A stretch of DNA of 62,165 nucleotides, filler included, from Anaerolineae bacterium (GTDB taxonomy: Bacteria > Chloroflexota > Anaerolineae > Epilineales > Epilineaceae): assembly GCA_029262755.1 (NCBI GenBank). It is 5 parts of 5 records of this genome, joined end to end, with 100 filler letters (N's around TTAATTAATTAA, not from the genome) between each part and the next. Parts side by side here need not be neighbours in the genome. Positions count along the whole stretch, not along the records: positions 19,451 to 34,317 come from JAJCYU010000268.1; 4 more parts are not named here. The stretch is one strand, 5' to 3'. The notes beneath the pieces were generated by a model, which saw only the letters and a list, made by a program, of their open reading frames with translations, searched no databases and was not told the origin of the DNA. The position numbers were made by a program, and so were the translations under genes. Below are positions 4,449 to 34,317 of this stretch, in pieces (the stretch's first letter is position 1; each line of letters opens with the position of its first letter).

Positions 4449-4455
4449 CGAGTAT

Positions 4456-7879: not shown

Positions 7880-7902
7880 TTCTCGCGCGAACTACCCCGC
7901 TT

Positions 7903-10392
<2,490 letters not shown>

Positions 10393-10508
10393 CTAGGGAG
10401 CCCGGGCAGGGATGGGTTCGTGGCGGAATGCGCCCTACAGAGAGAAAATACTCCGGGCTCCACCGCCCGCCTCGTGGGTGGGTGGGCGAGTACTTAATCG
10501 GTGGGATC

Positions 10509-11279: not shown

Positions 11280-11300
11280 CCGTCACGATTGGCGACTACG

Positions 11301-11378
11301 GAGGGCCGCTGGGTTGGGCCGCGGGATGGGGCCGCAGTGGCTGCCGAACCCGTAGATTCCAGCTGGTTGGACTACTAG
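11301..11378 (+). repeat. 3' fragment of the structured repeat, copy 2
   Basis: GCAGTGGCTGCCGAACCCGTAGATTCCAGCTGGTTGGACTACTAG closely matches the 3' end of 52648-52814. Confidence 0.75.
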
Positions 11379-14071: not shown

Positions 14072-14404
14072 GCGGCAGGGTCGAACTCAATTGCGATGCG
14101 AGGGCAGCGAATCGTGTCGCGACAAGAGCTTGCGCGCCGCGGGCGTGGTCGCAAGGACGGCTGCGAGTTCATGGGGTGCGTAGACGTTGCGTTCATAGTC
14201 TCGGAAGTATAGGGAGGGTTCCGAGCCGATGGTGCCGTCTTGCCGCCATCTCTCCCACGCTCACCCTACGGTGTGGGGGGTGGATGGGTACCGAGTTTGG
14301 ACCGGGATGGATGAGCATGAGGCACGTCGTGCCCGTGTCCTGGATCCTCGGAACCTTCTGCCCGCACCAGCCTGGCCCTTCCCGCCGCGCGCTATCATGC
14401 CCGC

Positions 14405-15415
14405 ATGACGTCCGCCCCCCGTGTTACCCCGATCCTCGCGCCCTTTGTGGCGAATGGCGGCCTGCTCTTGCTCGACGGTGGGCTAGCCACCGAGCTCGAG
14501 GCGCGCGGGCACGATCTTTCGGACGCGTTGTGGTCCGCGCGCTTGCTGCGCGACGCGCCGGCATCGGTGCGCGACGTCCATGCGGCCTACTTCGCGGCGG
14601 GCGCCGATTTGGCGATTACAGCCAGCTACCAGGCGAGCTTCGACGGCTTCGCACGCGTGGGCGTCGGGCAGGCGGAGGCCGAGGACCTGATGCGGCGCTC
14701 GGTGACGCTGGCGCGTGAGGCGGCGGCCGGTGCGGGGCGTGAAGGCGGGCGGCCGCGGCTCGTGGCGGCATCGGTCGGGCCCTACGGCGCCGCGCTCGCG
14801 GACGGCTCGGAGTATCGTGGCGATTATGGGGTCGATCGAGATGTGCTCGCGAGATTTCACCGGCGACGCTTGGAAGTTCTTGTAGAGGCCGGGCCGGACC
14901 TGCTCGCTCTCGAGACCATGCCGAATCGCGTGGAGATCGAGGTACTGCTCGAGCTGCTTGGTGAGCTGCCGGAATCGGCGCCTGCGGCGTGGCTCTCGGT
15001 CACGTGCCGCGACGGTGCGTGTTTGCGCGACGGGACCCCGATCGAGTCGATCGCGCGGCGCGTAGGGGCGTCAGGACGCGTTGTCGCATTCGGCGTCAAC
15101 TGCGTGGCGCCGGCGCACGTACGGTCGCTGCTCGAACGCGCCGCGGCCGTGACGGACCTGCCGCTGGTGGCCTACCCCAACCGGGGCGAGGAATGGGACG
15201 CGGTAGCGCGGGCTTGGATGAGCACGTCGGGCGACGATCGCGAGGAGCGGTCGGAGCGGGATGGCGCCGAGCGTGAAGGCTCGGCGCGTGACGAGTTCGT
15301 GCATCTCGCGCGCAGCTGGCATTCGGCCGGCGCTCGGCTGATTGGAGGCTGCTGTCGCACGGGGCCGGCGGATATTGCGGCGCTAGCGGAGGCATTTCGC
15401 GGCGGTGGGGAATGA
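14405..15415 (+). CDS. mmuM: Homocysteine S-methyltransferase
   Basis: LDGGLATELE, LWSA, GPYGA.LADGSEY.G.Y, GVNC, YPN.GE, IGGCC. TATCAT lies 6 nt upstream, so it may be leaderless. Confidence 0.93.
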   Translation: MTSAPRVTPILAPFVANGGLLLLDGGLATELEARGHDLSDALWSARLLRDAPASVRDVHAAYFAAGADLAITASYQASFDGFARVGVGQAEAEDLMRRSVTLAREAAAGAGREGGRPRLVAASVGPYGAALADGSEYRGDYGVDRDVLARFHRRRLEVLVEAGPDLLALETMPNRVEIEVLLELLGELPESAPAAWLSVTCRDGACLRDGTPIESIARRVGASGRVVAFGVNCVAPAHVRSLLERAAAVTDLPLVAYPNRGEEWDAVARAWMSTSGDDREERSERDGAEREGSARDEFVHLARSWHSAGARLIGGCCRTGPADIAALAEAFRGGGE

Positions 15416-15633
15416 GGCGCGGCACGTGGAGTATTGCGTTCCGGCACGGGAGGGGCGGCGCAACCGCTACGGGGTCGGTACCGGTGCGTTCGCGCTCTGA
15501 CGCTGGATCTCTGCTTCGACGGCGCCGAGGAAAGGCTGGTTGACGACCCTCCTTCCTACCAACGGGCCTCTTGCCTTGCTTCATCGACCTCACTTGCTCC
15601 CTACATCCACCCCTTCCCAGTCCCTGACCCTGA

Positions 15634-15676
15634 CGTACTCAGCCCCTGACTTCGAACTAGTCAGGGGCTGAGTGCG
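15634..15676. terminator. 18-bp hairpin between convergent genes
   Basis: CGTACTCAGCCCCTGACT-TCGAACT-AGTCAGGGGCTGAGTGCG. Confidence 0.7.
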
Positions 15677-15705
15677 AGCGATTGCGGGCGCTACCGCGCC
15701 GCTGT

Positions 15706-16140
15706 CTACCTCGTTCCACCTGCGATTGCAGGCTCCATCGCGCCAACTTGCACCGGATCCGTCGGATGCGCGACGTTCCATTTGGCAACCATCTCGGCGG
15801 CCGTCAGCCCGATGTTCTCGCGCTGCTGGATCTTGCCGGAGTAGTCGCTGAGGTCGGCGATTGCGCTGCGGAAGGTCTTGTCGAAGCGCATGACGGGCCG
15901 CACCGTGCCGTCGGCGCGCAGCTCGAGGGCGATCCGGCCGAGACCCGGTAGCTTGACCGCATATCCCTCGAGCAATGCATACACGATCTGGACGTGCAGC
16001 GCGCTCAATACGAGCCGAACGATGGGCGCGGTCACGAGCGTGCCGTTGGCCATGCGTGCGCCGAGCAAGCCGAGGCCGACCGTGCGGTAGGCGATCAGGC
16101 GCGGGCGGTAACGGGTAACGGCTTGGATGGTGGTGGCCAT
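15706..16140 (-). CDS. HU/IHF-like DNA-binding domain protein
   Basis: Helix followed by LLEGYAVKLPGLGRI, resembling the HU 'L..G..V.L.GFG.F' motif. AAGGGAG SD before the ATG. Confidence 0.6.
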   Translation of the reverse strand: MATTIQAVTRYRPRLIAYRTVGLGLLGARMANGTLVTAPIVRLVLSALHVQIVYALLEGYAVKLPGLGRIALELRADGTVRPVMRFDKTFRSAIADLSDYSGKIQQRENIGLTAAEMVAKWNVAHPTDPVQVGAMEPAIAGGTR

Positions 16141-16447
16141 GAAGGTCGCTCCCTTGCGGCTCTGGGGGGCGGTGTGAGCGGGTGTATTGCGCGAACGTGG
16201 GCTAGTAACGCGCGTCGGGGTAACGCGGTTCCCGGTGGACGTGCGCGAGCAGAACGGTCGGTCGGCGCCTGGATCCGCCATGTCGACTGCGCCGGACTAC
16301 GGCTCGGCCGGTCCATCCTCCGTCCATGCCCAGTCCGCGCCCACGTAATCGAGTATCAGCGAGTCGCGCTCGTCCGCGAGCTGCCGGACGCGTACCTGGT
16401 AACGGGTGGGTCCGCCGGGCTCGTCTTCGGTGGGATCGCCAAACCCC

Positions 16448-17479
16448 TCAGCGCCGACCGTCCGTAGATTTCCCCCCAACCGCCACCGGCTCATCCACCA
16501 CACGCACGTCCTCCGGCCCGCGCAACACGATCTGCGGCACGCCGCGGAAGCGCTCGATGGTGCCCTGCACGACGATGCAGCGATCGCGGAAGTGCAGGGC
16601 CGGGTGCGCCGGGTAGAGCTCGTAATCGCTGGGGAAGATCGCCACGTAGAAGTGGCCCTGGTAGGGCTCGTGGCTGTTGAGGAACGTGACCTTGCCCGTG
16701 TCCTTCGTGCCGACGACCTTGAACTCGACCGCCTGAAACGTGTCGAGGAAGTCCGCGGCGGAGGCTGCCGGAATCGCGCCGGGGATGCGAGCGCCGCAGG
16801 GGGGCGGGGTCGTATCCGTCGTGGGGGTCTCGACGCCGGCTGGCTCCGGTTGGGAGGGGGCGTCATTCTCCCGCGCTTCCCGCCCGGGTCGAAGGGCTAG
16901 CGCGGCGCGAACAGCGGTCGCCACGGGTGCCGTGCCTGTATGAGCGGCGGCGCTGTCGTTGGACGTCGCCTGCGCGCTGCGAACGGGCGAGGCTGCCAGC
17001 GGTGGCGGGGCCGGTTCTTGGCGCATAGCCCAGGATCGCGCGAAGATGGCGAGCAGCGCGACGAGCACGATCCACGACGAGGGGCGCGACAGGAGCGCTT
17101 TGGTACGGTATCCACGGGTCCCGTCGTCTGCAGCGCGCCCGTTGCTCGCGGCGAACCAGTGCGCCCACGTGGTCGGCGGACCGGGGTCTGCTTCTAGCTC
17201 GTTGTCCGACAACTTCACCACGCCTTCCGGGCGCGCGGGCTCGGTCTCCGGCAGGCGCCCTCGACGTGCCAACGCCGCGGCCGCGGCGGCACGAAACGCG
17301 TCCGATCCGATGCCCTCGGCAATCAGGTCGCGCAGGTAGGGGGCGTCCACCACCGCTACCCAGTCCACGCTCCGCCCGGCGTAGGGGCCGATGTCGAGCA
17401 TGGGAACGGATCGCGCCGTGGCGCGCGTAGCGCGTGCGGCTCGCTCGGTCGGGGGTGCATCTTCGGATCGCAAGGACAT
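16448..17479 (-). CDS. Single-pass membrane protein with a small N-terminal domain and a C-terminal OB-fold
   Basis: N-terminal IGPYAG..V..V...DAPYL (DUF3820/ExoX-C-like), central TM, and C-terminal FLN...F...IF...V.GTI..F.G.PQI. Confidence 0.6.
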   Translation of the reverse strand: MSLRSEDAPPTERAARATRATARSVPMLDIGPYAGRSVDWVAVVDAPYLRDLIAEGIGSDAFRAAAAAALARRGRLPETEPARPEGVVKLSDNELEADPGPPTTWAHWFAASNGRAADDGTRGYRTKALLSRPSSWIVLVALLAIFARSWAMRQEPAPPPLAASPVRSAQATSNDSAAAHTGTAPVATAVRAALALRPGREARENDAPSQPEPAGVETPTTDTTPPPCGARIPGAIPAASAADFLDTFQAVEFKVVGTKDTGKVTFLNSHEPYQGHFYVAIFPSDYELYPAHPALHFRDRCIVVQGTIERFRGVPQIVLRGPEDVRVVDEPVAVGGKSTDGRR

Positions 17480-17576
17480 AGCCACAGCTTGAGGCACCTT
17501 GGCCGGTTAGCGCACGGGGGTTCGCGCCAAGATTGCGCCGTGATTGCGACCCGTACACTAGACCAGCCACAGTCGG

Positions 17577-18251
17577 CTAAGCGCGCACCCTGCGCTCGGC
17601 TCGATGCCCAGTCGACTCGGGCCGCACCGTGCACCCACCCTGCACGGGCTCGGCCGACGTCTGTTCCGACAGCGAACCTGGCTCGGGCGCACCCAGCAAG
17701 CACGACGTCGGATCCACGCTCACGAAAGTACCGGGCGGGATCGCGACCGCGTCGCCGTCCGGCGACGTCTGATCGAGGAGCTTGCCCTCGGCGTCGCGGA
17801 CGAACAGCGTGTGGCGGTCCATCGAACGCGTGGCCGGGCCTTGCAAGAGGGTGCCGTCGCGCTCGAACCGCGAGCCGCAGGCCGGACAGAGGAAGATGTT
17901 GTTGCTCGCATTCCAATTCAGGAAGACGCCCCGGCGTGGGCAGACGAGGTGGAGCATCCGCGCACCGTCGTCGCCGGCTACGAATGCCATTCTCATTCCA
18001 GGCACGATGTAGGGCGGGTCACCGGGGCCCGGTAGCGACGCTGCGCCGCCCAGATCGACGATCTCATCGATGGCGTCGCGGCCGCCACCGTTGAGCGGCC
18101 GGCCGAGCGCCCCCAGGATGTTCGCGGACTGCGAGCCGAGCACGACCACCGCGCCGAGCCACGCCACGGAGAGCACCTCCCTGCGACTTATTGCTCGCGG
18201 AAACGTCGAAGCTGCGTCCACGTCCTTCTCGCCGTTCTCTTGGTCGTTCAT
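17577..18251 (-). CDS. Tat-anchored Rieske-fold protein with atypical ligand set
   Basis: SRREVL plus TM. The boxes read CPRRG...FLCPACGSRF..DG....GPATR. Confidence 0.75.
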   Translation of the reverse strand: MNDQENGEKDVDAASTFPRAISRREVLSVAWLGAVVVLGSQSANILGALGRPLNGGGRDAIDEIVDLGGAASLPGPGDPPYIVPGMRMAFVAGDDGARMLHLVCPRRGVFLNWNASNNIFLCPACGSRFERDGTLLQGPATRSMDRHTLFVRDAEGKLLDQTSPDGDAVAIPPGTFVSVDPTSCLLGAPEPGSLSEQTSAEPVQGGCTVRPESTGHRAERRVRA

Positions 18252-18641
18252 CGGTGACCCTCCTCGATGCTGCATCACCGGACGGAGCAAGGTGCTCGCG
18301 CGGTCGTGCCGGCCCGTACGCGCTCGAGATCGATGCCGCGCACGATGGATCGCGGGCCGCGACCGGCGTCCGGTAGGCGCGGAGCGGCGTAGGTTCAGGA
18401 TCCGCGATCGAGGTCGCAGGTCGGTCGGGTTTCCGTAGAAGCGCGGGCGATAAATCGTCACGTGAATCGAGGCGCGATCCGGCCTTCCTGGTGCTCGCGG
18501 TGGAGCCCACCGTGTCATCATCAGCGCCTCATTCGTCTTGATCGGCGCGAGCACGGCGAGCGGTCGCAACGAGCGGCACCGCCGCGGTCCACGATCGTCT
18601 CGCCATCCGACCAGTCAGCGCCGTCCTGGAGACTCCTCCGA

Positions 18642-19350
18642 ATGCCACCGATCGAACATCATCGCAACGATACTCGCGCCGGCGTGCCGGTCGCGTGGCG
18701 GCAGGCGCATAGTAAGCGAACCGCGCTCTTCGCCGCCGTCGCGACGGTCGCCGCCCTCGGCTTGGCGATTGGCCGGGGCGACCTCGAGCGCGACGATGCA
18801 CGGTCGGTCCGGGCCGACGCGCGACCAGCCTCGGCCAACGTCCGACCTCAGCAAGCGACCGGTACCGCGACGACCGTCGCATCCAGTGAGACGCCCACCC
18901 TGACGCCCTCCGCGACTCCGACCGTGCCCACGCTCACGCCGACGCAGACCCCGACCCTGCCGGCCTGGACGCCGAACGGGGCGTGGCGGCCGGTGCACGC
19001 GCCCGGCCGGGAGCCGTTGTGGACGCGGAATGTGCCGCGCTTGAATGCAGTGCACGGCCTGACGGACGAGCAAGGGGAGTCGACGGTGTGGGCCGTGGGC
19101 GACGATTGCGCGGTGGTGCGCTACACGGACGGCACCTGGGCGATCGACGCCGAGGCGGCCGCCTTGTGCAACGGCTCGCGTGCCTTCGATCTGCGAGACG
19201 TGTTCGTGCGCGAGGCGGACGAGGTTTGGGTCGTCGGGGCGTACACCGGTGGCTCGGGGCTCGAGTCCGTGCGCTGTGTGGAAGGCACGCCGGAGAGCAG
19301 GGAGGATGCTGATGTCGACGAGGGCTGCGGCATGGTGATGCATCGTCGGG
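18642..19350 (+). CDS. Secreted protein with Pro/Thr linker and beta-propeller-like repeats (partial, cut by gap)
   Basis: Hydrophobic N-terminal segment, TPT repeats, and repeats such as VWAVGD...YTDGTW and VWVVG. Confidence 0.65.
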
Positions 19351-19450
19351 NNNNNNNNNNNNNNNNNNNNNNNNNNNNNNNNNNNNNNNNNNNNTTAATT
19401 AATTAANNNNNNNNNNNNNNNNNNNNNNNNNNNNNNNNNNNNNNNNNNNN
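19351..19450. other. Artificial contig-joining spacer
   Basis: N44-TTAATTAATTAA-N44, which places stops in all six frames. Confidence 0.98.
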
Positions 19451-19540
19451 CGCCAGCGCCGTGGTGCTGGCGGCGTCGTCACCGCGCGAAAGATCGTAAA
19501 TCGCGCGCAGATAGTCTTCCATCGCCGGGGTTCGGTTCAC
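19451..19540 (-). CDS. DtxR/MntR-family metal-dependent repressor, N-terminus only (cut by gap)
   Basis: Manual translation VNRTPAMEDYLRAIYDLSRGDDAASTTALA carries the 'EDYL..IY.L' DtxR HTH signature. GGAGGG SD. Confidence 0.85.
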
Positions 19541-19625
19541 GGTCCCTCCACGGCCATTCTAGCGAGCGAAGCGCAATAATCCAATGCAGGCTAAATTGAA
19601 TTCGTTCCAATCACAACTCAAGTTG

Positions 19626-19637
19626 TAGGCTAGCCTA
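19626..19637. promoter_or_regulatory. DtxR/MntR-type operator palindrome
   Basis: Perfect palindrome TAGGCTAGCCTA in an AT-rich divergent promoter region, resembling TTAGG..CCTAA boxes of DtxR-family repressors. Confidence 0.7.
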
Positions 19638-19696
19638 AAACCATGTACACTCCGCCGAGCATGCCGAAGACTCCGTGCGCTAACGAGGTGGTCCCC

Positions 19697-21640
19697 ATGG
19701 TTCCAATCCATCCACGGTTCCGCATTCAGAGCGGTAGCCGCTCGGCGCGCGCCACGTCCCGGGTTGGTGTTGCCGTGCTGCTCGCTCTCGTGCTCACGTT
19801 GCTGACCCCGCGTCCGGGCAGCGCGCACATCGTGAAGGAGACCCCGTGGCATCCGGTGCCCGCGGCCTATCTGCGCGGGCTCTTTCTTGCCAACCTCGGC
19901 CCGGCCATCCGCTGGGATCGCATCGACGACGAGTGGTCGCAGCCGGCGGAGGGCGAGGGCTACGATGGGCTCTCGCCGCTCGACATGCTCGAGGAAGCCG
20001 ATGTCGACGCCGAGCCGATTCGCGCGGCGATTCGCGACGAAGATCGTCAAGCACTCTACGCCGCGTCGACCGCGGCCGTGTCGCGCTATGCACGCCACTT
20101 TCTCGCGGAGGCCACAGCCAAGCTTGATCGCCCGGGTGCTGCCAACGCGGATGTTCAGCGCGCAAGGCAGATCACGCGCGCCTTCGAGGATCCCTTCATC
20201 GCCGCCGTCGATCCGCGCGCCGCGCAGGACCTCGGTCGTGCATGGCTCACGCTGTCCAACAGTGTCGGGCATAGCGGCGTCATGGGCATCGGCCGCCTCG
20301 ACGCTCGGCCCGAGCCGTTCGCGCAGGCCAAGGGCACGGTCGAGACCTATCTGCGCTCCAACTACGAGGTCTCCGCATTCGAGACACGTCGTCTCCTTGC
20401 CCCCCTTCCCGAGCGCAGCCCCACCCGCGATCTGGAAGCGGAAGCGCCGTTCTGGCTGCCGCCGGGCACCAAGTTCAACGACCAGGACCCGCTGCCGCTG
20501 CTCGTGCTCAACTTCGAGTCCCGTGGCATCCACGAGGCCGACCTGCCGTTGATCGCTTACGGGGACATGCTCTTCGACTCCCCCCAGATCTTTGGCGATC
20601 CCGGCAAGAGCCTCGGTATCACGTGCTCGAAGTGCCACAACCGCAGCGATATCAACCGGGATCTGTTCATTCCCGGTGTCAGCCATAAGCCCGGCTCGAT
20701 CGACGTAGACGGCGCGTTCTTCAACTCCGCATTCAACGACATCCGCGACGACCCGATTGACATTCCGTCTCTGCGCGGGCTGCGCTTCACCGGTCCGTAC
20801 GGCCGTGACGGCCGCTTTGCGTCCCTGCGCGAGTTCACACGAAACGTGATCGTCAACGAGTTCGGCGGCGAAGAGCCGACACCCTTCATGCTCGATGCGC
20901 TGGTGTCCTACATGCTCGAGTTCGACTGGTTGGAGAACTCGATGCTGGAACCCGACGGCCGCCTGAACGATGCCGCGCCGAAGGCGGCGCTGCGGGGCGA
21001 GGTCCTCTTCAACACCCCCTTCGAGGGGATGGGCGATCGGGCCTGCAGCACCTGCCATATCCCCAGCGCCAACTTCCTGGACCGGCTCCCGCACGACATC
21101 GGCTCGGCCGAACGGTCGAGCCCCCTTGCGCGCGATAGCTTCTTCGACACGCCGACCCTGATCAACGTCGCGCAGACGGCGCCCTACTTCCACGATGGAT
21201 CCTTGGACACCCTGGCCGACGTGGTGACCTGGTTCGACGAGCAATTCGCGCTGGAGCTCACCCAGGCCCAACGCGCCGATCTCACGGCGTACCTCGAGAC
21301 CATCGGCGCCGCGGACACGCCGTGGGAGATCTTCGACGACGAGAACACACGCTTCGCGCTGGATTGGTCGGAGCTGAGCACCTTCCTGACCACGCTGGAT
21401 GTGCTCATCGAGGAGCGCGATCAATTCCATGCGCTGCTGCTGCTCGACACCGTCGCGCCGGACCTGCGTCTCGACGCGAGCGGTGCCACGGATGCCACCG
21501 TCCTGCCGCGCGTCTTTGAGATCGCCGATGCGCTCGACGGCATCCGTGCTCGGATCGAGGCGGAGGAATGGGTGGTCGCCGAGGAACAGAACGAACGATA
21601 CCAAGAGCTCGCCGAGACCTACGGCGAGAGCTTCCGCTAG
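19697..21640 (+). CDS. Exported di-heme cytochrome c peroxidase/MauG-family protein with extra helical N- and C-terminal domains
   Basis: Signal peptide, CSKCH (20624-20638) and CSTCH (21044-21058), IPSLRG...PY..DGR and TPTLIN...APYFHDGS. Confidence 0.88.
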   Translation: MVPIHPRFRIQSGSRSARATSRVGVAVLLALVLTLLTPRPGSAHIVKETPWHPVPAAYLRGLFLANLGPAIRWDRIDDEWSQPAEGEGYDGLSPLDMLEEADVDAEPIRAAIRDEDRQALYAASTAAVSRYARHFLAEATAKLDRPGAANADVQRARQITRAFEDPFIAAVDPRAAQDLGRAWLTLSNSVGHSGVMGIGRLDARPEPFAQAKGTVETYLRSNYEVSAFETRRLLAPLPERSPTRDLEAEAPFWLPPGTKFNDQDPLPLLVLNFESRGIHEADLPLIAYGDMLFDSPQIFGDPGKSLGITCSKCHNRSDINRDLFIPGVSHKPGSIDVDGAFFNSAFNDIRDDPIDIPSLRGLRFTGPYGRDGRFASLREFTRNVIVNEFGGEEPTPFMLDALVSYMLEFDWLENSMLEPDGRLNDAAPKAALRGEVLFNTPFEGMGDRACSTCHIPSANFLDRLPHDIGSAERSSPLARDSFFDTPTLINVAQTAPYFHDGSLDTLADVVTWFDEQFALELTQAQRADLTAYLETIGAADTPWEIFDDENTRFALDWSELSTFLTTLDVLIEERDQFHALLLLDTVAPDLRLDASGATDATVLPRVFEIADALDGIRARIEAEEWVVAEEQNERYQELAETYGESFR

Positions 21641-21660
21641 TCGCGGACGAGGAGAGCACG

Positions 21661-22791
21661 ATGAACCTGCAGCGCACGTCGATCCACAGCCGGAGGAGGG
21701 TCCGCGCGGCCGGCGCGATCCCGCGTCGCGCGAGGCCGGGCGGGGCGCAGTTCCTCGGCTTCGTGCTGCTATTGGTCCTCGCCTTCGGCGCGGCCGCCTG
21801 CACGGATGCGGGCGGGGATCCGGATTCGCCGGCCGCGCCGGGCGAATCTGCCGGCGACGAGCGTGGGGAGGAAGGGAGCGGCGTGTACGGCGATGGCTCG
21901 GACGGCCAACAGAACGCGTCGGACGCTGACGCTGCCGATCCAGCCGACGCCGATCCATCCGCCGCAGACCCGAACCTCCCCGTCTTCGATCCCGACGCCG
22001 ATCCGCTCGTGCTCGCGTTCATCCCGCAAGAGAACCCCGAGAAGCTGATCGGCGACGTATCGGCCATCACCGCCTACTTGGAAGAGCAGCTCGGGCGGCC
22101 GGTGAAGGGCTACGTCACGCAAGATCACGCGGCGGCGGTCGAAGCGCTTCGCAACGACGAGGCCGACATCTCCTTCATGGGCGCGTTGCCCTATGTCTTG
22201 GCTCACGATCAGGTCGGCGCGCAGGTCATCTTGTCCGAGGTCTACCGGGGCAAGCCCGAGTACACGAGCCGCATCTTCGTGCGCTCCGACAGCGGGATCG
22301 ACACCCTCGCCGACCTCCGCGGCAAGAGCGTCGCTTTCGCCGATCCCATCTCGGAGTCCGGGTACCTCTATCCGTTGGACAGCCTCGTGACCGCCGGGCT
22401 GATGACGCGCGGCGAAGATCCGCAAGACTTCTTCGAGACCGTCTACTTCGCGGGCGGCTACCAGCAGTCGATCGAAGCCGTGCTCAACGGCTACGTGGAC
22501 GCCGCAGGCGCCAGCCAGTTCGCCGACCTGCTCATCCCGGCCGGCCGCCTCGACGAGATCAAGTGGATCGCGGAATCCGAGCCGATCCCGTCGCACGCGG
22601 TGATCGTCCGGGCGGGGTTGGACGACGATCTCGTGGCCGCCTTCACCGCGGCAATGCTCCAGCTCAACGAGCCGGACCGGCAGTACCTGCTCAAGTACGT
22701 CTATGGCCCCGACGGCTTCGTCGAGGCCACGCACGCCGATTACGAGGGCGTTGAGGAGACCGCGCGCGCGTACGGGCTCATCGACGGGTGA
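21661..22791 (+). CDS. PhnD/PtxB-fold ABC substrate-binding lipoprotein with altered ligand pocket
   Basis: Lipobox AAAC, AFIPQEN, LRGKSVAFADPISESGYLYP, FAGGYQQS, SEPIP. Confidence 0.88.
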   Translation: MNLQRTSIHSRRRVRAAGAIPRRARPGGAQFLGFVLLLVLAFGAAACTDAGGDPDSPAAPGESAGDERGEEGSGVYGDGSDGQQNASDADAADPADADPSAADPNLPVFDPDADPLVLAFIPQENPEKLIGDVSAITAYLEEQLGRPVKGYVTQDHAAAVEALRNDEADISFMGALPYVLAHDQVGAQVILSEVYRGKPEYTSRIFVRSDSGIDTLADLRGKSVAFADPISESGYLYPLDSLVTAGLMTRGEDPQDFFETVYFAGGYQQSIEAVLNGYVDAAGASQFADLLIPAGRLDEIKWIAESEPIPSHAVIVRAGLDDDLVAAFTAAMLQLNEPDRQYLLKYVYGPDGFVEATHADYEGVEETARAYGLIDG

Positions 22792-23600
22792 GCGCAGCGC
22801 CGGCCGTCGTGCTCGACGGTCTGCAGGTTCGCTACGGCCCAGAGCGGCCTTGGGTGCTCGATCTCGACCACCTGACGATCCGCGCCGGCGAGCGCGTCGC
22901 GTTGATCGGGCCGAGCGGCTCCGGCAAGACGACGCTGCTGCGCGTGCTCAACGGCTACGTGCTGCCGGAACACGGCCATATGGCCATCCTCGGCCGCGTC
23001 ATCGACCCCAAGCGGCCGCGCGAGACCTGGCCGCAGGAAGAGCGCCTACGCGTGGGCTTCGTCTTCCAGGACTTCGCGCTGGTCGAGCGCGCGACGGTGT
23101 TTCAGAACGTCCTATGGGGCCGGCTCGGGCGTGTGCGCGCGCTGCCCAGCCTGCTCGGGATCTTTCCGCGCGCCGATAAGTTCGCCGCGATGCGCGCCAT
23201 CCTCGAGGTCGACCTACGCGACCAGGCGGCGCAGCGCGTCGACACGTTGAGCGGCGGTCAGCAGCAGCGCGTGGGCATAGCGCGCGTCTTGGCGCAAGAG
23301 GCCGAGGTCCTGCTGGCCGACGAGCCGGTGAGCAACCTCGATCCCGTGCTCGCCGAGGAGACCCTGGCGCTGCTGGCCACCTTGAGCCGCGCCCACGGCG
23401 CGACCCTCGTGATGAGCCTGCACCAGCCCGCCTTGGCCGCGCGCTACGCGGACCGGGTGATCGGCCTGCGCTCGGGAGCCATCGTGCACGATGGTCCTTC
23501 GGGCGCGCTCGACGAAGCCGCGGTACGCCGCATCTATCGACCCGATTCAAGCGCCACAAAGGCCGGTGAGTCCGCCGTGAAGGAAATGGTGGATGGCTGA
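22788..23600 (+). CDS. PhnC-like ABC ATPase
   Basis: GPSGSGKTT, LSGGQQQRV, LLADEPV.NLDP, SLHQ. Confidence 0.92.
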   Translation: MSAAPAVVLDGLQVRYGPERPWVLDLDHLTIRAGERVALIGPSGSGKTTLLRVLNGYVLPEHGHMAILGRVIDPKRPRETWPQEERLRVGFVFQDFALVERATVFQNVLWGRLGRVRALPSLLGIFPRADKFAAMRAILEVDLRDQAAQRVDTLSGGQQQRVGIARVLAQEAEVLLADEPVSNLDPVLAEETLALLATLSRAHGATLVMSLHQPALAARYADRVIGLRSGAIVHDGPSGALDEAAVRRIYRPDSSATKAGESAVKEMVDG

Positions 23601-24393
23601 TCGACGCGAGCTGGGATTGGCATATCCACGCCCGACGCTCCAAGAGAGCGTGGCGCGCGCCTCCGGTGTCGTGCTCCTGGTCGTGCTTGCAGCATGGGCG
23701 CTGCGCGGCGCCGACGTGCAGCTCGACAAGCTGCAGACGGGTCTACCACGGCTGGGTGCATTCCTCGGCCGGCTGTTCCCCCCGGACATCGACGCCGCCA
23801 CGACCGTCTTCGGCGCGACGGTCGAGACGCTGCAGATCGCGGTCGCCGGCACGCTGTTGAGCATCGCTGCATCCGTGCTGCTCGGGATCTTGGCCGCGAC
23901 CAACCTCACGCCGGTCTGGGTGCACCAGCCCGTGAAGTGGCTGCTCGGCGCGCTGCGCGGCATTCCGCTGATCCTGCTGGCCCTGATGTTCGTCACGATC
24001 GTCGGCCTGGGCCCCTTCCCCGGCGTTCTGGCGATCGCGTTCCACTCCACGGGCATGCTGGGCAAGTTCTACGCGGAGGCCATGGAGGGCGCTCGCCGCG
24101 GCCCCCTCGAAGCGCTCGACAGCGCAGGCGCCTCGTGGTGGCAGCGCATTCGCTTCGGCATCCTGCCGCAGGTCGCGCCGGACCTGGCGCGCGATACGCT
24201 CTTCCGCTTCGAGCTGAACTTCCGCGACTCGCTCGTGCTCGGCCTCGTTGGCGCGGGCGGTATCGGCTTCTACATCCAGCTGTACGCGCGCGGCTTCCAA
24301 TACGCGAAGGTGGCCACGCTGACGATCGTGGTGCTGATCGTCGTGATCGCCGTGGAACAGCTGAGCGTCGCGGTGCGCGCCCGCTTGCGCTAA
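23593..24393 (+). CDS. PhnE/PtxC-like ABC permease
   Basis: LFPPD, ETLQIA..GT, VGLGPFPGVLA, GKFYAE, RFELNFR...LGLVGAGGIG. Confidence 0.92.
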   Translation: MADRRELGLAYPRPTLQESVARASGVVLLVVLAAWALRGADVQLDKLQTGLPRLGAFLGRLFPPDIDAATTVFGATVETLQIAVAGTLLSIAASVLLGILAATNLTPVWVHQPVKWLLGALRGIPLILLALMFVTIVGLGPFPGVLAIAFHSTGMLGKFYAEAMEGARRGPLEALDSAGASWWQRIRFGILPQVAPDLARDTLFRFELNFRDSLVLGLVGAGGIGFYIQLYARGFQYAKVATLTIVVLIVVIAVEQLSVAVRARLR

Positions 24394-24438
24394 GGGCGCG
24401 TCAAGCAACAAGCGGCACCCGAGTTACATCCGCACCGA

Positions 24439-26253
24439 CTACGCGGGATTCGTGCCGCGTAGCAACTCCTCTTGCGCCATGGCCGCCAAGTCCTGGAGCA
24501 GCTTCAGGTCGTCCGGGCTGAGCACGCGCGGGCGGTAGTCGATCACGCAGAAGCTGCCGACCGCTTCACCGGTAGCGGCGGACAGCGGCACGCCGGCGTA
24601 GAAGCGGATTCCGGGCGGTGCGGCCACGAGCGGGTTGTCCGCGAAACGGTCGTCGAGCAAGGTGTCGGGCACCACCAGCGGACGGTTGTCGAGGATGGCG
24701 TGGGCGCAGAACGCGACGTCGCGTGGGGTGTCCGCGGCATCCAGACCGCACACCGACTTGAAGTGCTGTCGGTCTCGGTCGATGAGCGTCAAGGCCGAGA
24801 CGGGCACTTGGAGGAGCCGTTGTGCGAGCTGTGTGAGGCGGTCGAAACGTGCATCCGACTCCGAGTCGAGCACGTCGAGGTCGACTAGGGCCTGCAAGCG
24901 GGCTTGCTCGTTGCTGGGAATCGCCGCGGCCGCCCATCTCCCGCCCGTGCGTAGTACGCCGGCGGCAATCCGAGCGCGCGCGTAGGCCGCGGTGAATGGC
25001 TTCTCCATCACGTCCGTCGCGCCGGCCTTCGTAGCGGCCGTGCGACCCTCTGTGTCACCGCCCGCCAAGGCGAGCAGGATTGCGCGATCCGCGGCCGACC
25101 CGCCCTCCGCGCCGCGGAGGCGGCGGCACAGTTCGAAGGCGGCGGACTCCTGCAAATCGTTGTCCAACAAGACCATCGCTGGTTGGTGGAATTCTACGAC
25201 CCGCATTGCGCTCTCTGGATCGTCCGCGGTGAGCAGGTTAAAGCCGTTGGCGAGCACCGCGTCGCCCAACGTCCGCGCCGTGTCGGGGTCGGGCGAGACC
25301 ACGAGCACTTGGTGCTGGATGATCGCGGAGCGCAGGGCGAGTTCGGTCGCCGCGGCGGATTCGCGATGCGGCACGGGATCGAGGCGGGCGAGCTCTATCG
25401 TGCGCCCCTCCGCGGCGGCGAAAACATCTAACGTCGATCCACCTGCCGCGGCGCGCCGTCGGGCCTCCTGCTCTAGGCCTTCGAGCTCAGCATCGGTTCG
25501 CCACGGGTCGTGATGGAAGAGGGCCAACCGCCGAACCTTGGCTCGCAGCGCAAGGTCAACCCCATACTCCATCGTGCTGTGTCCCCAGCCCATCCTCTGC
25601 GGATATTCCTCCGCGGTGTACTGCGCGTCGTGGATCAGCAGATCGACGTCTTCGACGAACTTGGCATGCGCGAGATCCTCACCCGTCAGGCGACCGCGGA
25701 TGCCGTCGGCGTACTGCCGTTCGTGGGGCTCGTGGTCGGTGGCGTAGACCACCGTGACGCCGTCCACCTCGAAGCGATAGCCCACCGTCAGCGCGGGATG
25801 GTTGAGGAAACGGGTCGTGACCCGAATGTCGTCGATCTCGAAGGTGCCCTCGACCAGCTCGTGATAGCTACGGTCGGCGCCGATTCCCGTGAGCGATATC
25901 GGGAAGTAGGGCTCGCGCAGCTGGCCGGTCAGCGTGTCCTTGAGCGATTCGCCCAGGCCCCGCGGCCCGTAGATGTCCCACCGCGCGTCGGGCAGATAGA
26001 GGGGCTGGAAGAAGGGGAAGCCCTGCACGTGATCCCAATGCGTGTGGGTGAAGAGCATGTGCCCCCGCAGCGCGTCCGTGCCGGTGGCGGCCAGCTCGCG
26101 GCCCAAGCCGTGCGCGCCGGTGCCGCAGTCCAGCACCAGCAGGGTGCCGGCCGCGGATCGCAGCGTCACGCAGGAGGTATTGCCCCCATAGCGCAGCGTC
26201 GACGCTCCCGGTTGCGGGATAGAGCCGCGGGTTCCCCAGAATTTCAGGTGCAT
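24439..26253 (-). CDS. MBL-fold metallohydrolase fused to REC and GAF domains
   Basis: FWGTRGS, YGGNTSC, THTHWDH, GWGHS, FHHDP. REC region (VLLD...KPF). GAF region (FCAHAI, RFADNPLV, IRFYAG). Confidence 0.9.
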   Translation of the reverse strand: MHLKFWGTRGSIPQPGASTLRYGGNTSCVTLRSAAGTLLVLDCGTGAHGLGRELAATGTDALRGHMLFTHTHWDHVQGFPFFQPLYLPDARWDIYGPRGLGESLKDTLTGQLREPYFPISLTGIGADRSYHELVEGTFEIDDIRVTTRFLNHPALTVGYRFEVDGVTVVYATDHEPHERQYADGIRGRLTGEDLAHAKFVEDVDLLIHDAQYTAEEYPQRMGWGHSTMEYGVDLALRAKVRRLALFHHDPWRTDAELEGLEQEARRRAAAGGSTLDVFAAAEGRTIELARLDPVPHRESAAATELALRSAIIQHQVLVVSPDPDTARTLGDAVLANGFNLLTADDPESAMRVVEFHQPAMVLLDNDLQESAAFELCRRLRGAEGGSAADRAILLALAGGDTEGRTAATKAGATDVMEKPFTAAYARARIAAGVLRTGGRWAAAAIPSNEQARLQALVDLDVLDSESDARFDRLTQLAQRLLQVPVSALTLIDRDRQHFKSVCGLDAADTPRDVAFCAHAILDNRPLVVPDTLLDDRFADNPLVAAPPGIRFYAGVPLSAATGEAVGSFCVIDYRPRVLSPDDLKLLQDLAAMAQEELLRGTNPA

Positions 26254-26485
26254 GGCGTTGCTCCGGCTTGCCCGTGTCGGAACGATGTCGAAGCCGATGG
26301 CCACGTCGGCAGGCACTGCCAGCATATCGCCTAGCGCGAGGAAGGCAACACGAGCAATCGGTGTGCGCAGCTCGCTCGCCCGCCGGACGCGGTTGACGCA
26401 GCATCCGATTGCGGACACGATCGCGCCGGCTCGGAGCGCTGCGTCCGGGCGCCCGGGTCGAGAACATTAGCGAGGAGGAGCGACC

Positions 26486-26812
26486 ATGGCGGATGGAAAA
26501 ACGACAGGAATCGACACACCTGGCCGCCATTCTACGGATTTCCCACGAGGGTCCGTTGCCACCCGGTCCGCCGCCGTCTGGGGCGGCGTGATGGGTGCGG
26601 TGCTCCTATTGATGCGCAAGGCGATCGCGGTGCCCGTGCTGCTCGTCTCGTTGATCGCCATGATCATCACAGCGACTTCCCACGGCGGGTTGTCCGACGC
26701 TGTGGTGGTCATTGGCATGGTTGCCCTCGTGTTCAGCGCGCTGAACTGCGCAACTTCGCCTGGCGCCTACCTCTACGCCAAACGGATGCGCGATCAAGGC
26801 GTCCTCGTCTAG
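26486..26812 (+). CDS. Small membrane protein (start uncertain, possibly a fragment)
   Basis: Hydrophobic segments, C-terminal YAKRMRDQGVL, and GAGGAG SD. Confidence 0.45.
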   Translation: MADGKTTGIDTPGRHSTDFPRGSVATRSAAVWGGVMGAVLLLMRKAIAVPVLLVSLIAMIITATSHGGLSDAVVVIGMVALVFSALNCATSPGAYLYAKRMRDQGVLV

Positions 26813-27607
26813 GTGGGGCGTCTGCCGGTGGCGGTCCCGGAGCCGATCCCCGCGCTGCGGGCGGAGTTCGCCGCGCAACCTTCCGATGAGAAGCGGGCCT
26901 TGGATCTGGCACGCGCGCTCGGCGCCGCGGGCTGCGGCCACGAAGCCGGCGTGCATCTGCGTCCGCGTCGTGCTGCCTGGCGGGACGCGAGCTGGGCGTC
27001 GGACGCGAAGGCTTGGCTTGCGGCCACGACGTGGTGGAACAGCAATTGGCGCGAGGTCGCGCTTGCGCGGCAGTCGGGTCGCTACGCAGAAGCACGGTCG
27101 ATGGTCGGCGATCGCGCGTCTGCGCTGTGGGACTTTCCACCATTGCTTGCGCACCTCGAAGCGATTGCCCGTGCGGACGGTGACTGGGCGGAGGTCGCGC
27201 ACCTGGACGCCCGTATCGTGTACCTGTGCGAGCGCGGCGTACCGAAAATCCCCACGGCGGCGTTCGACTACCTCGCGCGCGTGGGCTTGCTTGAGGCGCG
27301 GGCAGAGCAGGGTCAGCCGGAGGAAGCGCTGACCGAGCTGGAGGCGCTGAACCACCATCCGGGCAACCAGCATCATTACCAGATGCGCCTCGCCGAATTG
27401 ACCGTGCTCGCCGACAAGCAGGAGCGGGCCATGCGCCGCGTGGCGGAGGCGCTGATCACGGCGGGCAAACGTACAGGCTACTCGAAGACCCTCCGCGAGA
27501 CGTGGGTTGAGCATTCGCCGCGCCTCGAGCCGCTGCGTGCACGCCCTGACTGGCCGATCTTGGTCGCCGAGCCCAAAGAGTGGCTGGCGGAGCATGGCGC
27601 ACCGTGA
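26813..27607 (+). CDS. Hypothetical TPR-like helical protein
   Basis: Ala/Leu/Glu/Arg-rich helical pattern. GTGA overlap with the M23 gene. Confidence 0.6.
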   Translation: MGRLPVAVPEPIPALRAEFAAQPSDEKRALDLARALGAAGCGHEAGVHLRPRRAAWRDASWASDAKAWLAATTWWNSNWREVALARQSGRYAEARSMVGDRASALWDFPPLLAHLEAIARADGDWAEVAHLDARIVYLCERGVPKIPTAAFDYLARVGLLEARAEQGQPEEALTELEALNHHPGNQHHYQMRLAELTVLADKQERAMRRVAEALITAGKRTGYSKTLRETWVEHSPRLEPLRARPDWPILVAEPKEWLAEHGAP

Positions 27608-28401
27608 TCCGACGTGATGCGCCCCGCCGCCCCACCCTCGTGCGCCCCGCGCTCGCGCGCACGGCCCTCGCGCTGGCGGCCGTCGTCGTGCTCCTGCTGG
27701 CCGCCGTCCGCTTCGGCGCCGTCGACGCGCCGCCGATCGGCATCGGCCCCGGCCGCGACCCGGCGGCGGTCGCGCGTTTGCGCAGCTGGATCGACGACCC
27801 GGCCGCGTACCTCGCGTGGCGGCTCGATGCCGGCACCCGCTGCGGCGAAGCGCCGATGCTGCTGCCGACCTCCGGCATGGTCGGCTACGGGCGGGGCGAC
27901 AGGGTCCGGCCCGGTCCCCTTCACTCCGGACTCGACATCTTCAGCCCCGACGGCCTCCTCGGCGTGACCCCAATCGTCGCCGCGTACGATGGCTTCCTGA
28001 CGCGCGAGGCGGATTGGAAGAGCACCGTGATCATTCGGCACCCCGATTTCCCCTCGGAACTCGGGCTGGTGGACACGGGTGACACGATCTGGACCTACTA
28101 CACCCACATGGCTTCCGTGGACGGCGAGACGGTCTACATCGAGCCGGACTTTCCGCCCGGCACCTATGAGCAGCCGATAGCCGCCGGCACGCTCCTCGGC
28201 TACCAGGGTCGCTGGTCGGGCGACCCCGGCGCACCGACGGGGCTGCACCTGCACTTTTCGATCGTGCGCTCGACGCAGACTGCGGCGGACGGGGTGCCCG
28301 GCTTCCTGGACGAGACGCAGATCGAGCACACCTACGACCCGCTGCCCTTCCTGGGACTCACGCCGGACGCGGCAGGCGTGCCGGTGTGTAGGGAGCCGTA
28401 G
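27604..28401 (+). CDS. M23-family metallopeptidase, membrane-anchored
   Basis: N-terminal TM, HSGLD, YYTHM, HLHF. Confidence 0.88.
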   Translation: MIRRDAPRRPTLVRPALARTALALAAVVVLLLAAVRFGAVDAPPIGIGPGRDPAAVARLRSWIDDPAAYLAWRLDAGTRCGEAPMLLPTSGMVGYGRGDRVRPGPLHSGLDIFSPDGLLGVTPIVAAYDGFLTREADWKSTVIIRHPDFPSELGLVDTGDTIWTYYTHMASVDGETVYIEPDFPPGTYEQPIAAGTLLGYQGRWSGDPGAPTGLHLHFSIVRSTQTAADGVPGFLDETQIEHTYDPLPFLGLTPDAAGVPVCREP

Positions 28402-28680
28402 TAAGGCTTTTCGCCCGATTCGGTCGTGCACGCACCGCTATCGCGGTCGCGAGTCAAGGGACCGCGGGGCACGCCTGGCATCCACGATGCTCCGGTGCCC
28501 GAGCCCGAGCCCGAGCCCGCATCGCGGACGCGGACGTCGAAGTGGACGTGGACTTCTGCGACATGCTCGCAACGGAGGTGGGGCAAGACGGCCGCGTGCA
28601 ACGGGGCGAACCCAGGCTTGCTTGGCCTGGGCTCGCTCTTTCGTATCGCTTGGGAACGCGACCTGCCTGGCCGCGCTCGC

Positions 28681-29562
28681 TCAGTCTCCGCGGTAAAGCA
28701 ACGGCAGCAGCAGGACGTGTCGCGGGGGTGCTACCGTGCTCGCCGGACGCGTCGGCGTCGCTTCGACGGGCGGCGCGGTGGTAGGCGCCGTGGTCGGCGC
28801 GCTCGTCGGCACCGTGGTCGCGTCGGCGGTGGCGGTGGGTGGCGACGTCGTTGGCGGCGGGAGGTACGGCCGCTCGTTGTGATAGCAGGCCGGTGGATCG
28901 TCCAAGTAGCGTTCCAGGGACGCGGCAAGGTCGCCGAAGTCGAGCAGCTCGCCCCGCCGGCGTCCCGGCGCGGTGCCATCGGACGACCAGGCCCAGTCGT
29001 GCTGTTCGAGCACGGTGCCGTCGCAGTCGATCAGGTAGCCGGCGTTGGGCCGACCGCCGCCATACGTGCTCCGGATGGCCTCGTCACTGTGCGTATCATG
29101 CTCGATGAAGTCGATCATCATCGGGATCACGAGATCCGGTTCGGGATCGTATTTCATCCAACGCCCACGCTGTGCACGCTCCGGCATCGTCTTGGTGACG
29201 GTCACCGGATGATCCCAGCACTCCGTGCCGGGGTGCGCCTCTTTGCCGTAAACCCAGATGAAGTTGATGCGGTCGCTGAAGGTCCGATACGTTTCTTCCA
29301 AACCTTGGAAGTTATTGTGCGAAGGCGGTCAGGTCGCCGAACCGGTCACGAGAACCAACGGGCGATCCGCGATCATGTCCGCCATCTCGATCTCCCGCTC
29401 AAACTCGTCGATGCTCTGGTAGAGCACGGCTTTGTCGCCGACCAGCAGTTTGGTCGGGCGCTGGCGCTGCGCCTCGGCGGGTCGATGTCCCGCCAGGGTT
29501 ACGAGGGCGGCGCTGCTTAGGATCAGCGCCGCGCCCGCCAGAATTCGTCGATTGCGTGCCAT
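28681..29562 (-). CDS. Secreted iodothyronine-deiodinase-like selenoprotein (UGA = Sec at 29329-29331)
   Basis: AAGGAG SD and signal peptide ending AEA. RPLVLVTGSAT-TGA-PPS continues in frame to FIWVYGKEAHP. Pro/Thr linker and C-terminal VLLLPLLYR. Confidence 0.88.
29295..29311 (-). promoter_or_regulatory. Candidate bacterial SECIS element
   Basis: mRNA CUUCCAA-GGU-UUGGAAG. The GGU apical loop lies about 24 nt after the UGA. Confidence 0.65.
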
Positions 29563-29761
29563 GTTGCGCTCCTTGGTGGCGATGGTATGTAGGGAGACGG
29601 GTGCGTGCCCTCCCCCTGGAGCAACGCTGCAGCAGGCCGAAGCGTTTGATGGTCCGTGAATCACCCCTGACGAACGATCTACCTGCCTTCCGACAATTCC
29701 TATACAGTGCGGTCGCTACAGTGCGGTCGGCTGAATTCCTCCCACGCGCACAGGAAATCGG

Positions 29762-34118: not shown

Positions 34119-34317
34119 TGCGCCCTACCGCCGAATGGCAGGTTGCGGGTGCTTGCAACTACGACTGCAGCTACTGCATCCAATCGCGGCGATATCGGCG
34201 CGGCCGACCGGATGCCGCGCAGGTCGAGCGCGCGCTCGTCTTCTTTGCCGGACTGCCCGGACGATGGGAGATCAAGTGCAGCGGCGGCGAGGCCTTCGCG
34301 CATCGGCTCTTCGTCGA
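34115..34317 (+). CDS. Second radical SAM protein, N-terminal part (cut by gap)
   Basis: CNYDCSYC and SGGE. ATGA overlap with the upstream gene. Confidence 0.88.

Follow-up and report, generated by a model that had tools for sequence, protein, structure and literature searches.

Several described systems frame the locus examined here. In FbpABC and FutABC, a class II substrate-binding protein (SBP) takes up the naked trivalent metal through Tyr, His and carboxylate residues and feeds a type I ATP-binding cassette (ABC) importer, while transferrin holds Fe(III)—and, in plasma, also Mn(III)—by means of one Asp, two Tyr and one His together with carbonate at a helix N-terminus. EfeUOB, like Fet3/Ftr1 and FtrABCD, follows another concept, in which an extracytoplasmic heme or copper oxidoreductase is coupled to a carrier for the oxidised metal. 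For manganese, a 2022 review of importers lists NRAMP, PsaA-type ABC, ZIP, porin and type VI secretion routes, and no PhnD-type system (PMC9334652). According to a further review, transferrin and phytotransferrin arose among the phosphonate-binding periplasmic proteins (PMC7676907), and in the phosphite binder Te_PtxB the ligands are given as Y55, Y100, S130, T131, S132 and H160, with a capping Y208 braced by D22 (PMC5700983). Here we describe a four-gene operon at positions 19451-24393 of a 62,165-nt stretch of DNA from an Anaerolineae bacterium (assembly GCA_029262755.1; the whole stretch is termed the window), which combines a PhnD-fold SBP with a di-heme protein and is probably an undescribed kind of metal uptake system, most likely for manganese.

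Judged from sequence and comparison, the operon encodes a heme protein, an SBP, an ATPase and a permease, with a DtxR/MntR-type repressor site just upstream and an adjacent repressor that is apparently of the Mn-sensing type. That this cassette is a metal-cation importer under a Mn-type regulator appears quite probable, and manganese as its main substrate appears moderately likely. As an overall explanation we favour, with comparable reserve, a self-contained, horizontally mobile metal-uptake cassette. The window consists of at least five joined contigs, with N-runs carrying a TTAATTAATTAA linker at 19351-19450, 34318-34417, 47986-48085 and 54648-54747, and adjacency across these joins is not physical. 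The cassette contig (C268, 14.9 kb) spans window positions 19451-34317, and the studied stretch begins right at a junction. The features are the following:

19351..19450, no strand: contig junction, an N-run with the TTAATTAATTAA linker; contig C267 (window 1-19350) lies to its left, and the cassette is on C268
19451..19525, minus strand: opening ~24 codons of a regulator gene of the DtxR/MntR family (MEDYLRAIYDL...), oriented divergently to the operon (PF01325, E 6e-5)
19622..19641, no strand: candidate operator with the core palindrome TAGGCTAGCCTA at 19626-19637, ~60 nt 5' of the likely heme-gene start codon
19697..21640, plus strand: di-heme CCP/MauG-superfamily protein, exported, 647 aa, with two CxxCH motifs and PF03150; alternative ATG at 19643
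21661..22791, plus strand: PhnD-fold substrate-binding lipoprotein with a long low-complexity linker (PF12974, E 4.7e-63)
22788..23600, plus strand: PhnC-like ABC ATPase (TIGR02315, 241.1 bits against a cut-off of 266.1; PF00005)
23593..24393, plus strand: PhnE-like ABC permease, the final gene of the operon (TIGR01097, 267.9 bits against a cut-off of 216.7)

The ATG at 19697 is favoured as the start of the heme gene because it is preceded by a GAGGTG Shine-Dalgarno sequence; none is found at the upstream ATG (19643). The SBP gene begins 21 nt past the heme-gene stop, the PhnC gene overlaps the SBP gene by 4 nt and the PhnE gene overlaps the PhnC gene by 8 nt—overlaps that, together with the domain matches, bear out the tight coupling of PhnD-, PhnC- and PhnE-like genes put forward in a preliminary description of this DNA. 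The palindrome TAGGCTAGCCTA was likewise located between regulator and operon, as that description had it, and its exported di-heme CCP/MauG-like product agrees with the two CxxCH motifs, a signal-like N-terminus and a PF03150 match of 39.8 bits (cut-off 25.6) that covers residues 453-528 only. Its statement that no C-P lyase, ptxD or phosphatase gene follows also held, in that domain searches of contig C268 found no C-P lyase, ptxD, other phn/ptx or phosphatase genes, and PhnJ had no match in the window's genome, which is 84% complete. A sigma-70 promoter scan of 19451-24600 returned no site.

The substrate pocket of the SBP, numbered from codon 21961, comprises D55-H56, Y101, S131-E132-S133, Y167 and H212. 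The codons for QDH (22120-22128), SES (22351-22359) and GGY (22453-22461) lie exactly where they had been placed before and align to TDY, STS and GSH of PtxB; residue by residue, Y55, Y100, S130, T131, S132, H160, Y208 and D22 of Te_PtxB align to H56, Y101, S131, E132, S133, Y167, H212 and Q23. The oxyanion ligand set of the PtxB type (Tyr, Tyr, Ser-Thr-Ser and His, plus a capping Tyr) is not found in this protein, which presents H, Y, S-E-S, Y and H at the aligned positions. We compared 80 genomic loci from at least nine higher taxa, about 50 of which belong to Rhodobacterales, so that the counts reported here and below are not independent. D55, the S-E-S-G motif, Y167 and H212 are present in all 80, Y101 in 79 and H56 in 78. 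A Glu preceding Y101 ('E-Y'), formerly counted as a ligand, occurs in 0 of the 80 loci and is peculiar to the window, outside the conserved site. The broader proposal of a non-oxyanion pocket fared better, and the replacements at the phosphite-contact positions of PtxB, as aligned across the loci, leave it well supported.

A conserved family surrounds this protein. A search of 5.8 billion proteins gave 1429 relatives, the best 120 of which share 66-100% identity with the window protein; the few named sources among these 120 are Anaerolineae, Acidobacteriota, Deltaproteobacteria, Methylomirabilis, Dadabacteria and Thermodesulfobacteria. The clade is sharply conserved, with 58-79% identity across many phyla, and structural alignments place it at 19-30% identity to PtxB, HtxB, ArrX, AioX and PhnD. 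With these proteins it has in common the fold (template-modelling (TM) scores 0.78-0.84, Z 25-28.6) and, as operon partners, a PhnC-like ATPase and a PhnE-like permease. One rival reading is that the cassette still imports an oxyanion—a reduced phosphorus, arsenic or selenium species, or some other anion—with the link to a metal regulator being incidental. PF12974 is matched, the broad subfamily model TIGR01098 is exceeded by the SBP and the equivalog cut-off by PhnE, a sub-threshold match to a putative selenate SBP model (NCBIfam) was obtained, and the family already includes the arsenite/arsenate binders AioX and ArrX. However, of the six oxyanion ligands four are replaced, as is the cap, a Glu occupies the anion cradle at all 80 loci, no phn or ptx catabolic genes were found on the contig (nor PhnJ in the 84%-complete genome), and the association with a regulator is seen repeatedly, across five or more separate lineages. 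We regard oxyanion import as very improbable. The replacements relative to PtxB include Y55 by H, T131 by E, H160 by Y and Y208 by H, with D22 by Q besides. The SBP falls below the cut-off of the PhnD equivalog model (TIGR03431, 166.5 against 261.1 bits), and the cassette differs from the PtxB group in its di-heme partner, in its MntR/DtxR or Fur/Mur-like sites and in having no phosphorus-catabolism genes on that contig.

From a structural perspective, the SBP was modelled with a predicted local distance difference test (pLDDT) value of 92 and adopts the PF12974 fold, with TM-scores of 0.80-0.84 to closed PtxB; because the model superposes on that structure, the replaced residues would, by homology, line one small cavity. 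A fold search independent of Foldseek, run over 48,161 representative chains, was led by eight PhnD-family chains (Z 25-28.6). The best match beyond that family was diferric human transferrin (3V83_A; Z 21.4, root-mean-square deviation 3.8, 255 aligned residues, 17% identity) and the next was saxiphilin (Z 20.1), both of them above all other binding-protein families; Foldseek agreed in ranking the PhnD family first and transferrin after it. FbpA was not among the 50 structural matches listed, and the SBP gave no match to an FbpA-family Pfam model. The likeness to FbpA suggested in the preliminary description is better replaced by transferrin, which, going by the predicted structure, fits better as an analogue.

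By structural element, the invariant residues of the SBP fall in lobe 1 (Asp55), a hinge strand (Tyr101), lobe 2 (Tyr167) and a hinge strand (His212), and Glu132 occupies the first turn of helix 132-144. These appear to be the same kinds of elements as those bearing the transferrin ligands—a well-motivated lead, in which topology would suggest the equivalence of residues. A 45-aa segment of the SBP, queried for a residue-level alignment to transferrin, returned only PtxB. The SBP resembles transferrin and the phytotransferrin ISIP2a in a fold that is the next-closest after the PhnD family and, it appears, in an Asp, Tyr, Tyr, His set, here accompanied by a Glu at a helix N-terminus. Unlike them, it is bacterial, has a single lobe and serves an ABC importer; moreover, the carbonate site would probably be replaced by a protein carboxylate, and the regulation of the cassette points to Mn, not Fe.

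Turning to the regulator, the fragment in the window matches PF01325 at 23.6 bits, which on its own is below the cut-off of 26, and the rest of the gene is located outside the window, where contig C269 from this assembly ends. Over 18-19 nt the last letters of C269 match the start of C268 exactly, the reading frame runs on across the join (...STTALA, then ERLGV...), and the C269 part matches PF02742 at 106.6 bits (cut-off 27). Since the overlap is exact and the frame continues, the regulator is real and complete in the organism. The divergent DtxR/MntR repressor described earlier can accordingly be kept as a divergent member of the DtxR family, with the correction that the window holds only ~24 of its codons and C269 the remainder.

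In this family, selectivity for Fe or Mn is set at the positions of DtxR Met10 and Cys102, and Met10 marks the Fe-type regulators DtxR and IdeR. The window regulator has Asp at the former and His at the latter position. Its best matches in the Protein Data Bank (PDB) are 5ZR4, which we take to be MntR of M. tuberculosis, and 8PVT (~1e-39), with IdeR and DtxR following at 1e-16 to 1e-23. A preprint describes 8PVT as the Mn sensor DR2539 of Deinococcus (D. radiodurans). The pattern extends to other loci: all 50 of the regulators examined carry Asp at the Met10 position, four long regulators from other phyla pair it with Glu at the Cys102 position, and in 46 alphaproteobacterial regulators the residues that align with D8 and E11 of MntR are Asp and Glu. 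A representative of the latter group finds its best match in E. coli MntR (2H09, 7.6e-39) and keeps D8, E11, H77, E99, E102 and H103 of B. subtilis MntR. From their sequences, we read the cassette-adjacent regulators as Mn type, not Fe type, with Mn(II) as the predicted effector.

An open reading frame (ORF) of the DtxR/MntR family adjoins the heme gene in 51 of the 80 loci, in several forms—short, divergent and MntR-type in Alphaproteobacteria; long and co-directional in Dadabacteria, Thermodesulfobacteriota and Trueperaceae; and divergent in the window. Homologues of the SESG-type SBP co-occur either with such regulators or with Fur/Mur-like boxes, and metal-responsive control of the cassette is well supported by these neighbourhoods. 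For the import of Fe or Mn, as first proposed, this means that the metal-responsive control stands, while the choice between the two metals shifts towards Mn with the Asp found in all 50 regulators.

The operator sequences add to this picture. Of 50 loci with an adjacent regulator, 44 carry a TTAG-N6-CTAA box 5' of the heme gene, as do 6 of the 19 that lack such a regulator, against 0.005 expected per region. The box of the window, GTAGGCTAGCCTAA, is a one-mismatch variant of this pattern, and its nearest variant, TTAGGCTAGACTAA, occurs in L011. The core TAGC-N4-GCTA agrees with the enterobacterial MntR consensus given by Rodionov et al. (PMC1698941). Within the window's own genome TAGGCTAGCCTA is not enriched (3 sites per strand with at most one mismatch, against 12 for a control pattern), and the significance of the palindrome comes from the comparison with other loci. 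A second exact TAGGCTAGCCTA (L086, G000:C167, 432-443), ~90 nt before an NADP-malic-enzyme-like ORF that starts at 534, has unrelated flanks and is probably a chance occurrence.

Other boxes, and links to mntH, were found where the adjacent regulator is missing. In Pseudogemmobacter bohemicus, whose cassette has no adjacent regulator, the Fur/Mur-type 16-mer TGCAAATCATTCGCAA occurs exactly twice in 5.6 Mb, once before mntH and once before the cassette; none of the three sites in this genome that differ at two positions adjoins a metal gene. The cassette of Bosea sp. LC85 has mntH as its neighbour on the divergent side, and a box of related sequence is found before a second mntH. The Geminicoccaceae loci carry a classic Fur-box-like sequence. 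The cassette resembles MntH, MntABC/SitABCD, MntX and MnoP in being under regulators of the same kind (MntR/Mur), with the P. bohemicus box common to mntH and cassette; unlike it, those systems use unrelated families of transporters and SBPs. The same consensus study calls the mntR of Mesorhizobium sp. BNC1 'enigmatic', its single site being upstream of mntR itself (PMC1698941); a divergent cassette of the present kind could explain that site. As a separate observation, Labrenzia sp. R4_2 has a second MntR-type box, TTAGACTTGTCTAA (L028, 10207-10220), 5 kb downstream of the cassette and between genes for a BTLCP cysteine proteinase and a DedA/VTT protein; the 400-nt leader near it gave no Rfam match to a Mn riboswitch.

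A competing explanation is ferric-iron uptake, in which the transferrin-like site would bind Fe(III), either alone or together with carbonate or phosphate, an EfeB-style ferroxidase role would fall to the heme protein, and the regulators would respond to Fe(II) or to both metals. The Asp/Tyr/Tyr/His set in a transferrin-like fold speaks for it, as does the Fur-box-like sequence of the Geminicoccaceae loci; in addition, DR2539—among the closest solved relatives of the window regulator—is reportedly a dual Mn/Fe repressor, going by the title of a study (PMC3327659). However, the adjacent regulators have Asp in place of Met in 50 of 50 cases and Glu or His at the Cys102 position, the alphaproteobacterial representative keeps all six Mn ligands of MntR, and the P. 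bohemicus box is shared only with mntH, a gene that adjoins the cassette in Bosea. The window's genome also contains a second DtxR-family gene with unusual metal-site residues (L085, G000:C63, 1216-1908, minus strand), which is divergent from a gene for an FbpA-like (SBP_bac_6/8) binding protein at 2118-3206 (plus strand), probably the ferric-ion ABC system of the organism. Because this second DtxR-like gene adjoins an SBP of the Fe(III) type, the cassette regulator would be free for another metal. FbpABC and FutABC share with the cassette the concept of a metal-binding SBP that feeds an ABC importer; they differ in that FbpA belongs to another SBP cluster, has no heme partner and is Fur-regulated, with the organism's own FbpA-like system encoded elsewhere. 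We consider iron uptake unlikely.

We also examined how the cassette is distributed. Loci came from genomes titled Caldilineaceae, Anaerolineae, Acidobacteriota, Dadabacteria, Thermodesulfobacteriota, Spirochaetia and Trueperaceae, and further ones from Hyphomicrobiales, Geminicoccaceae, Porticoccus, Granulosicoccus and many Rhodobacterales. In 71 of the 80 loci the SBP gene comes directly after a heme gene that codes for 560 aa or more; seven are cut by contig ends, so that the pairing holds for 71 of the 73 with enough upstream DNA, in line with the co-occurrence of SESG-type PhnD homologues and the di-heme gene that the preliminary description proposed to check. PhnC- and PhnE-like genes follow the SBP gene wherever the DNA is present, save in L014, where they are upstream instead. 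Genes outside the four-gene cassette are not conserved, except for a PF13557 (or DUF5777) outer-membrane beta-barrel beside it in L023 (4050-4925), L014 (7890-8714), L006 (7677-8015) and, weakly, L013 (3654-4481); the hosts are Acidobacteriota, Thermodesulfobacteriota and other metagenome-assembled genomes, and the barrel might carry the cassette's substrate across the outer membrane.

Within the window's own lineage the cassette is rare—among 35 genomes of the order, and likewise among 401 sampled genomes of the phylum, only one carries it, the window's genome in both cases. This rarity, together with ~70% identity across phyla, points to horizontal spread as judged from sequence comparison, although the cassette contig of the window may also be mis-binned. 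In Rhodobacterales and Hyphomicrobiales (L024, L033, L038, L044, L053 and others), the cassette and mntR are located among lnt, lspA, DsbB- and DsbA-like, SCO1/SenC and mer genes, an arrangement reminiscent of a mobile island for metal homeostasis; the cassette of Hoeflea sp. Naph1 is plasmid-borne. One apparent fusion of heme protein and SBP among the relatives (P0121, 557 aa) was set aside, as out-of-frame stretches merge the C-terminal part of the former with the latter, which marks a frameshift or gene-calling artefact.

The role of the heme protein forms the weakest part of any explanation. Its layout comprises a signal peptide, an N-terminal helical domain (~50-225), a di-heme core (~250-545) and a C-terminal four-helix bundle (553-647). 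The heme motifs CSKCH and CSTCH, as well as PYxHDG, are invariant in 22 of 22 aligned sequences, and two CxxCH motifs with PYxHDG are also what it shares with bacterial cytochrome c peroxidases (bCCPs), MauG, MbnH and the gamma subunit of hydrazine synthase. Profile matches are modest (6e-15 to 1e-8), with hydrazine synthase gamma at 6e-15 and MbnH (6E1C) at 2.8e-13, followed by bCCPs and MauG; the top NCBIfam models, MbnH and MauG-like, are both sub-threshold, and Foldseek matches to bCCPs are weak. The second heme has an axial Met in bCCP and an axial Tyr in MauG and MbnH. The position held by Met in S. oneidensis CcpA and by Tyr in MbnH (6E1C) aligns to a near-invariant Phe in the present protein, which further differs from these enzymes in being about twice as long (647 aa versus the ~300-390 aa of a two-domain bCCP or MauG), in having conserved helical domains at both ends and in being always encoded with an ABC importer. 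The N-terminal helical domain was modelled confidently, and its ESM Atlas matches score at most 0.77, which offers no hint of a function; the rows of a wider fold search cover residues 263-647 only. The C-terminal bundle was considered as a clue and dropped, as its PsbQ-like and b562-like matches (Z ~12) are in the usual range for helical bundles.

These features bear on two further explanations of the heme protein, both of which seem to us improbable, and about equally so. One would make it a maturase of the MauG/MbnH type that modifies the SBP—by Tyr or Trp oxidation, for instance—and thereby creates or tunes the metal site, with no action on the metal itself. In the copper protein MbnP the kynurenine ligand is the product of MbnH, MbnH (6E1C, 2.8e-13) and MauG are among the best profile matches and lead the NCBIfam models, though below threshold, and the pairing of heme gene and SBP gene is strict. 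Yet all matches to MbnH and MauG are weak, their axial Tyr is replaced by Phe, no modification site is known, and two Rhodobacterales loci do without an intact heme gene: L020 (3087-3527) and L052 (6462-6854) retain only its last ~125-145 codons, with SBP, PhnC and PhnE genes intact. The other explanation reads it as a mere periplasmic peroxidase, co-expressed because Mn-starved cells are peroxide-sensitive, while the ABC transporter imports Mn(II) or another cation with no redox step. Membership of the bCCP superfamily, the two CxxCH motifs and the persistence of the transporter in L020 and L052 are in its favour, but the conserved helical domains at both termini, which add some 300 residues, the Phe at the axial Met position, a gene order fixed across phyla and two Tyr ligands—unusual for Mn(II)—argue otherwise.

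Returning to a metal-uptake cassette under a Mn-type regulator, its operation can be outlined as follows. Low cytoplasmic Mn(II) would take the repressor off its operator and allow the operon to be expressed. The PhnD-fold SBP would bind no phosphorus oxyanion; instead, a hard metal cation would be coordinated by Asp/His, a pair of Tyr, a further His and the Glu in the helix-N-terminal anion cradle, and the PhnC/PhnE-like transporter would bring in the bound metal. More speculatively, the substrate would be manganese taken as Mn(III), produced from Mn(II) beside the SBP by the exported di-heme enzyme with peroxide or another oxidant, much as EfeB is placed in EfeUOB. Capture of Mn(III) after such oxidation is attractive because a Tyr-rich, transferrin-like site suits a trivalent ion. 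By analogy, an action of the heme protein on the redox state of the metal may be put forward tentatively. The full scheme of oxidative manganese uptake through a prokaryotic transferrin—Mn(II) oxidised outside the cytoplasm, Mn(III) captured by a single-lobe SBP with Glu in the place of the synergistic carbonate, and import by the ABC transporter—is more doubtful still. The parallel with EfeUOB extends to the combination of oxidoreductase and carrier; unlike it, the cassette pairs a di-heme CCP/MauG-like protein with an ABC transporter, EfeB being a DyP peroxidase and EfeU an Ftr1-type permease, with no homology between the two systems.

A number of observations weigh against this reading, besides the dependence among the counts and the two truncated heme genes. 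Adjacent regulators are missing from 29 of the 80 loci, and the window regulator has His where the compared Mn sensors have Glu. Of 5 alphaproteobacterial (Rhodobacterales) genomes, 4 have the MntR-type box nowhere but at the cassette, so that the regulator appears to be local and its effector cannot be cross-checked through a regulon. As for the transporter, PhnE is above its equivalog cut-off and PhnC and PhnD are moderately below theirs, which describes an ordinary phosphonate-type core, and profile matches between the SBP and transferrins are not significant (E 0.02 and 0.057). Tyr/Tyr/His/Asp is the classic Fe(III) site, and its chemistry favours iron as much as Mn(III). Finally, the heme core is poorly modelled (pLDDT 74 overall for the protein and <50 in parts of the core), and we know of no di-heme CCP that oxidises Mn(II).

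We found no description of the cassette in the full-text literature searched, outside of which McQuaid et al. 2018 and the supplementary tables of Mur and MntR sites of Rodionov et al. might bear on this point. If the proposal is correct, the cassette would be a new class among the few bacterial importers of Mn (or Fe), widespread in marine Rhodobacterales and in soil or sediment Acidobacteriota, Chloroflexota and Thermodesulfobacteriota. It would apply redox-gated selectivity, as in EfeUOB, to an ABC importer. Under the full oxidative scheme it would be the first importer specific for Mn(III), with the SBP clade as the closest living bacterial relative of the transferrin/phytotransferrin ancestor, already equipped with their ligand set. 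The SBP would provide a tractable bacterial protein between phosphonate-binding proteins and transferrins that would bear on the origin of the transferrin metal site. Moreover, thousands of genes annotated as 'phosphonate ABC transporter' would be mis-annotated, and estimates of phosphonate or phosphite use drawn from metagenomes would be inflated.

On the window itself, the gene after PhnE is convergent (24439-26418, minus strand, 659 aa) and encodes a protein in which an MBL-fold hydrolase is joined to a GAF domain and a response-regulator receiver; other loci do not keep this gene beside the cassette. Further along contig C268, at window positions 29762-34115 on the plus strand, two large ORFs (449 and 561 aa) with no Pfam match are followed by a radical SAM/SPASM protein, and this group may be a peptide-maturation cluster.

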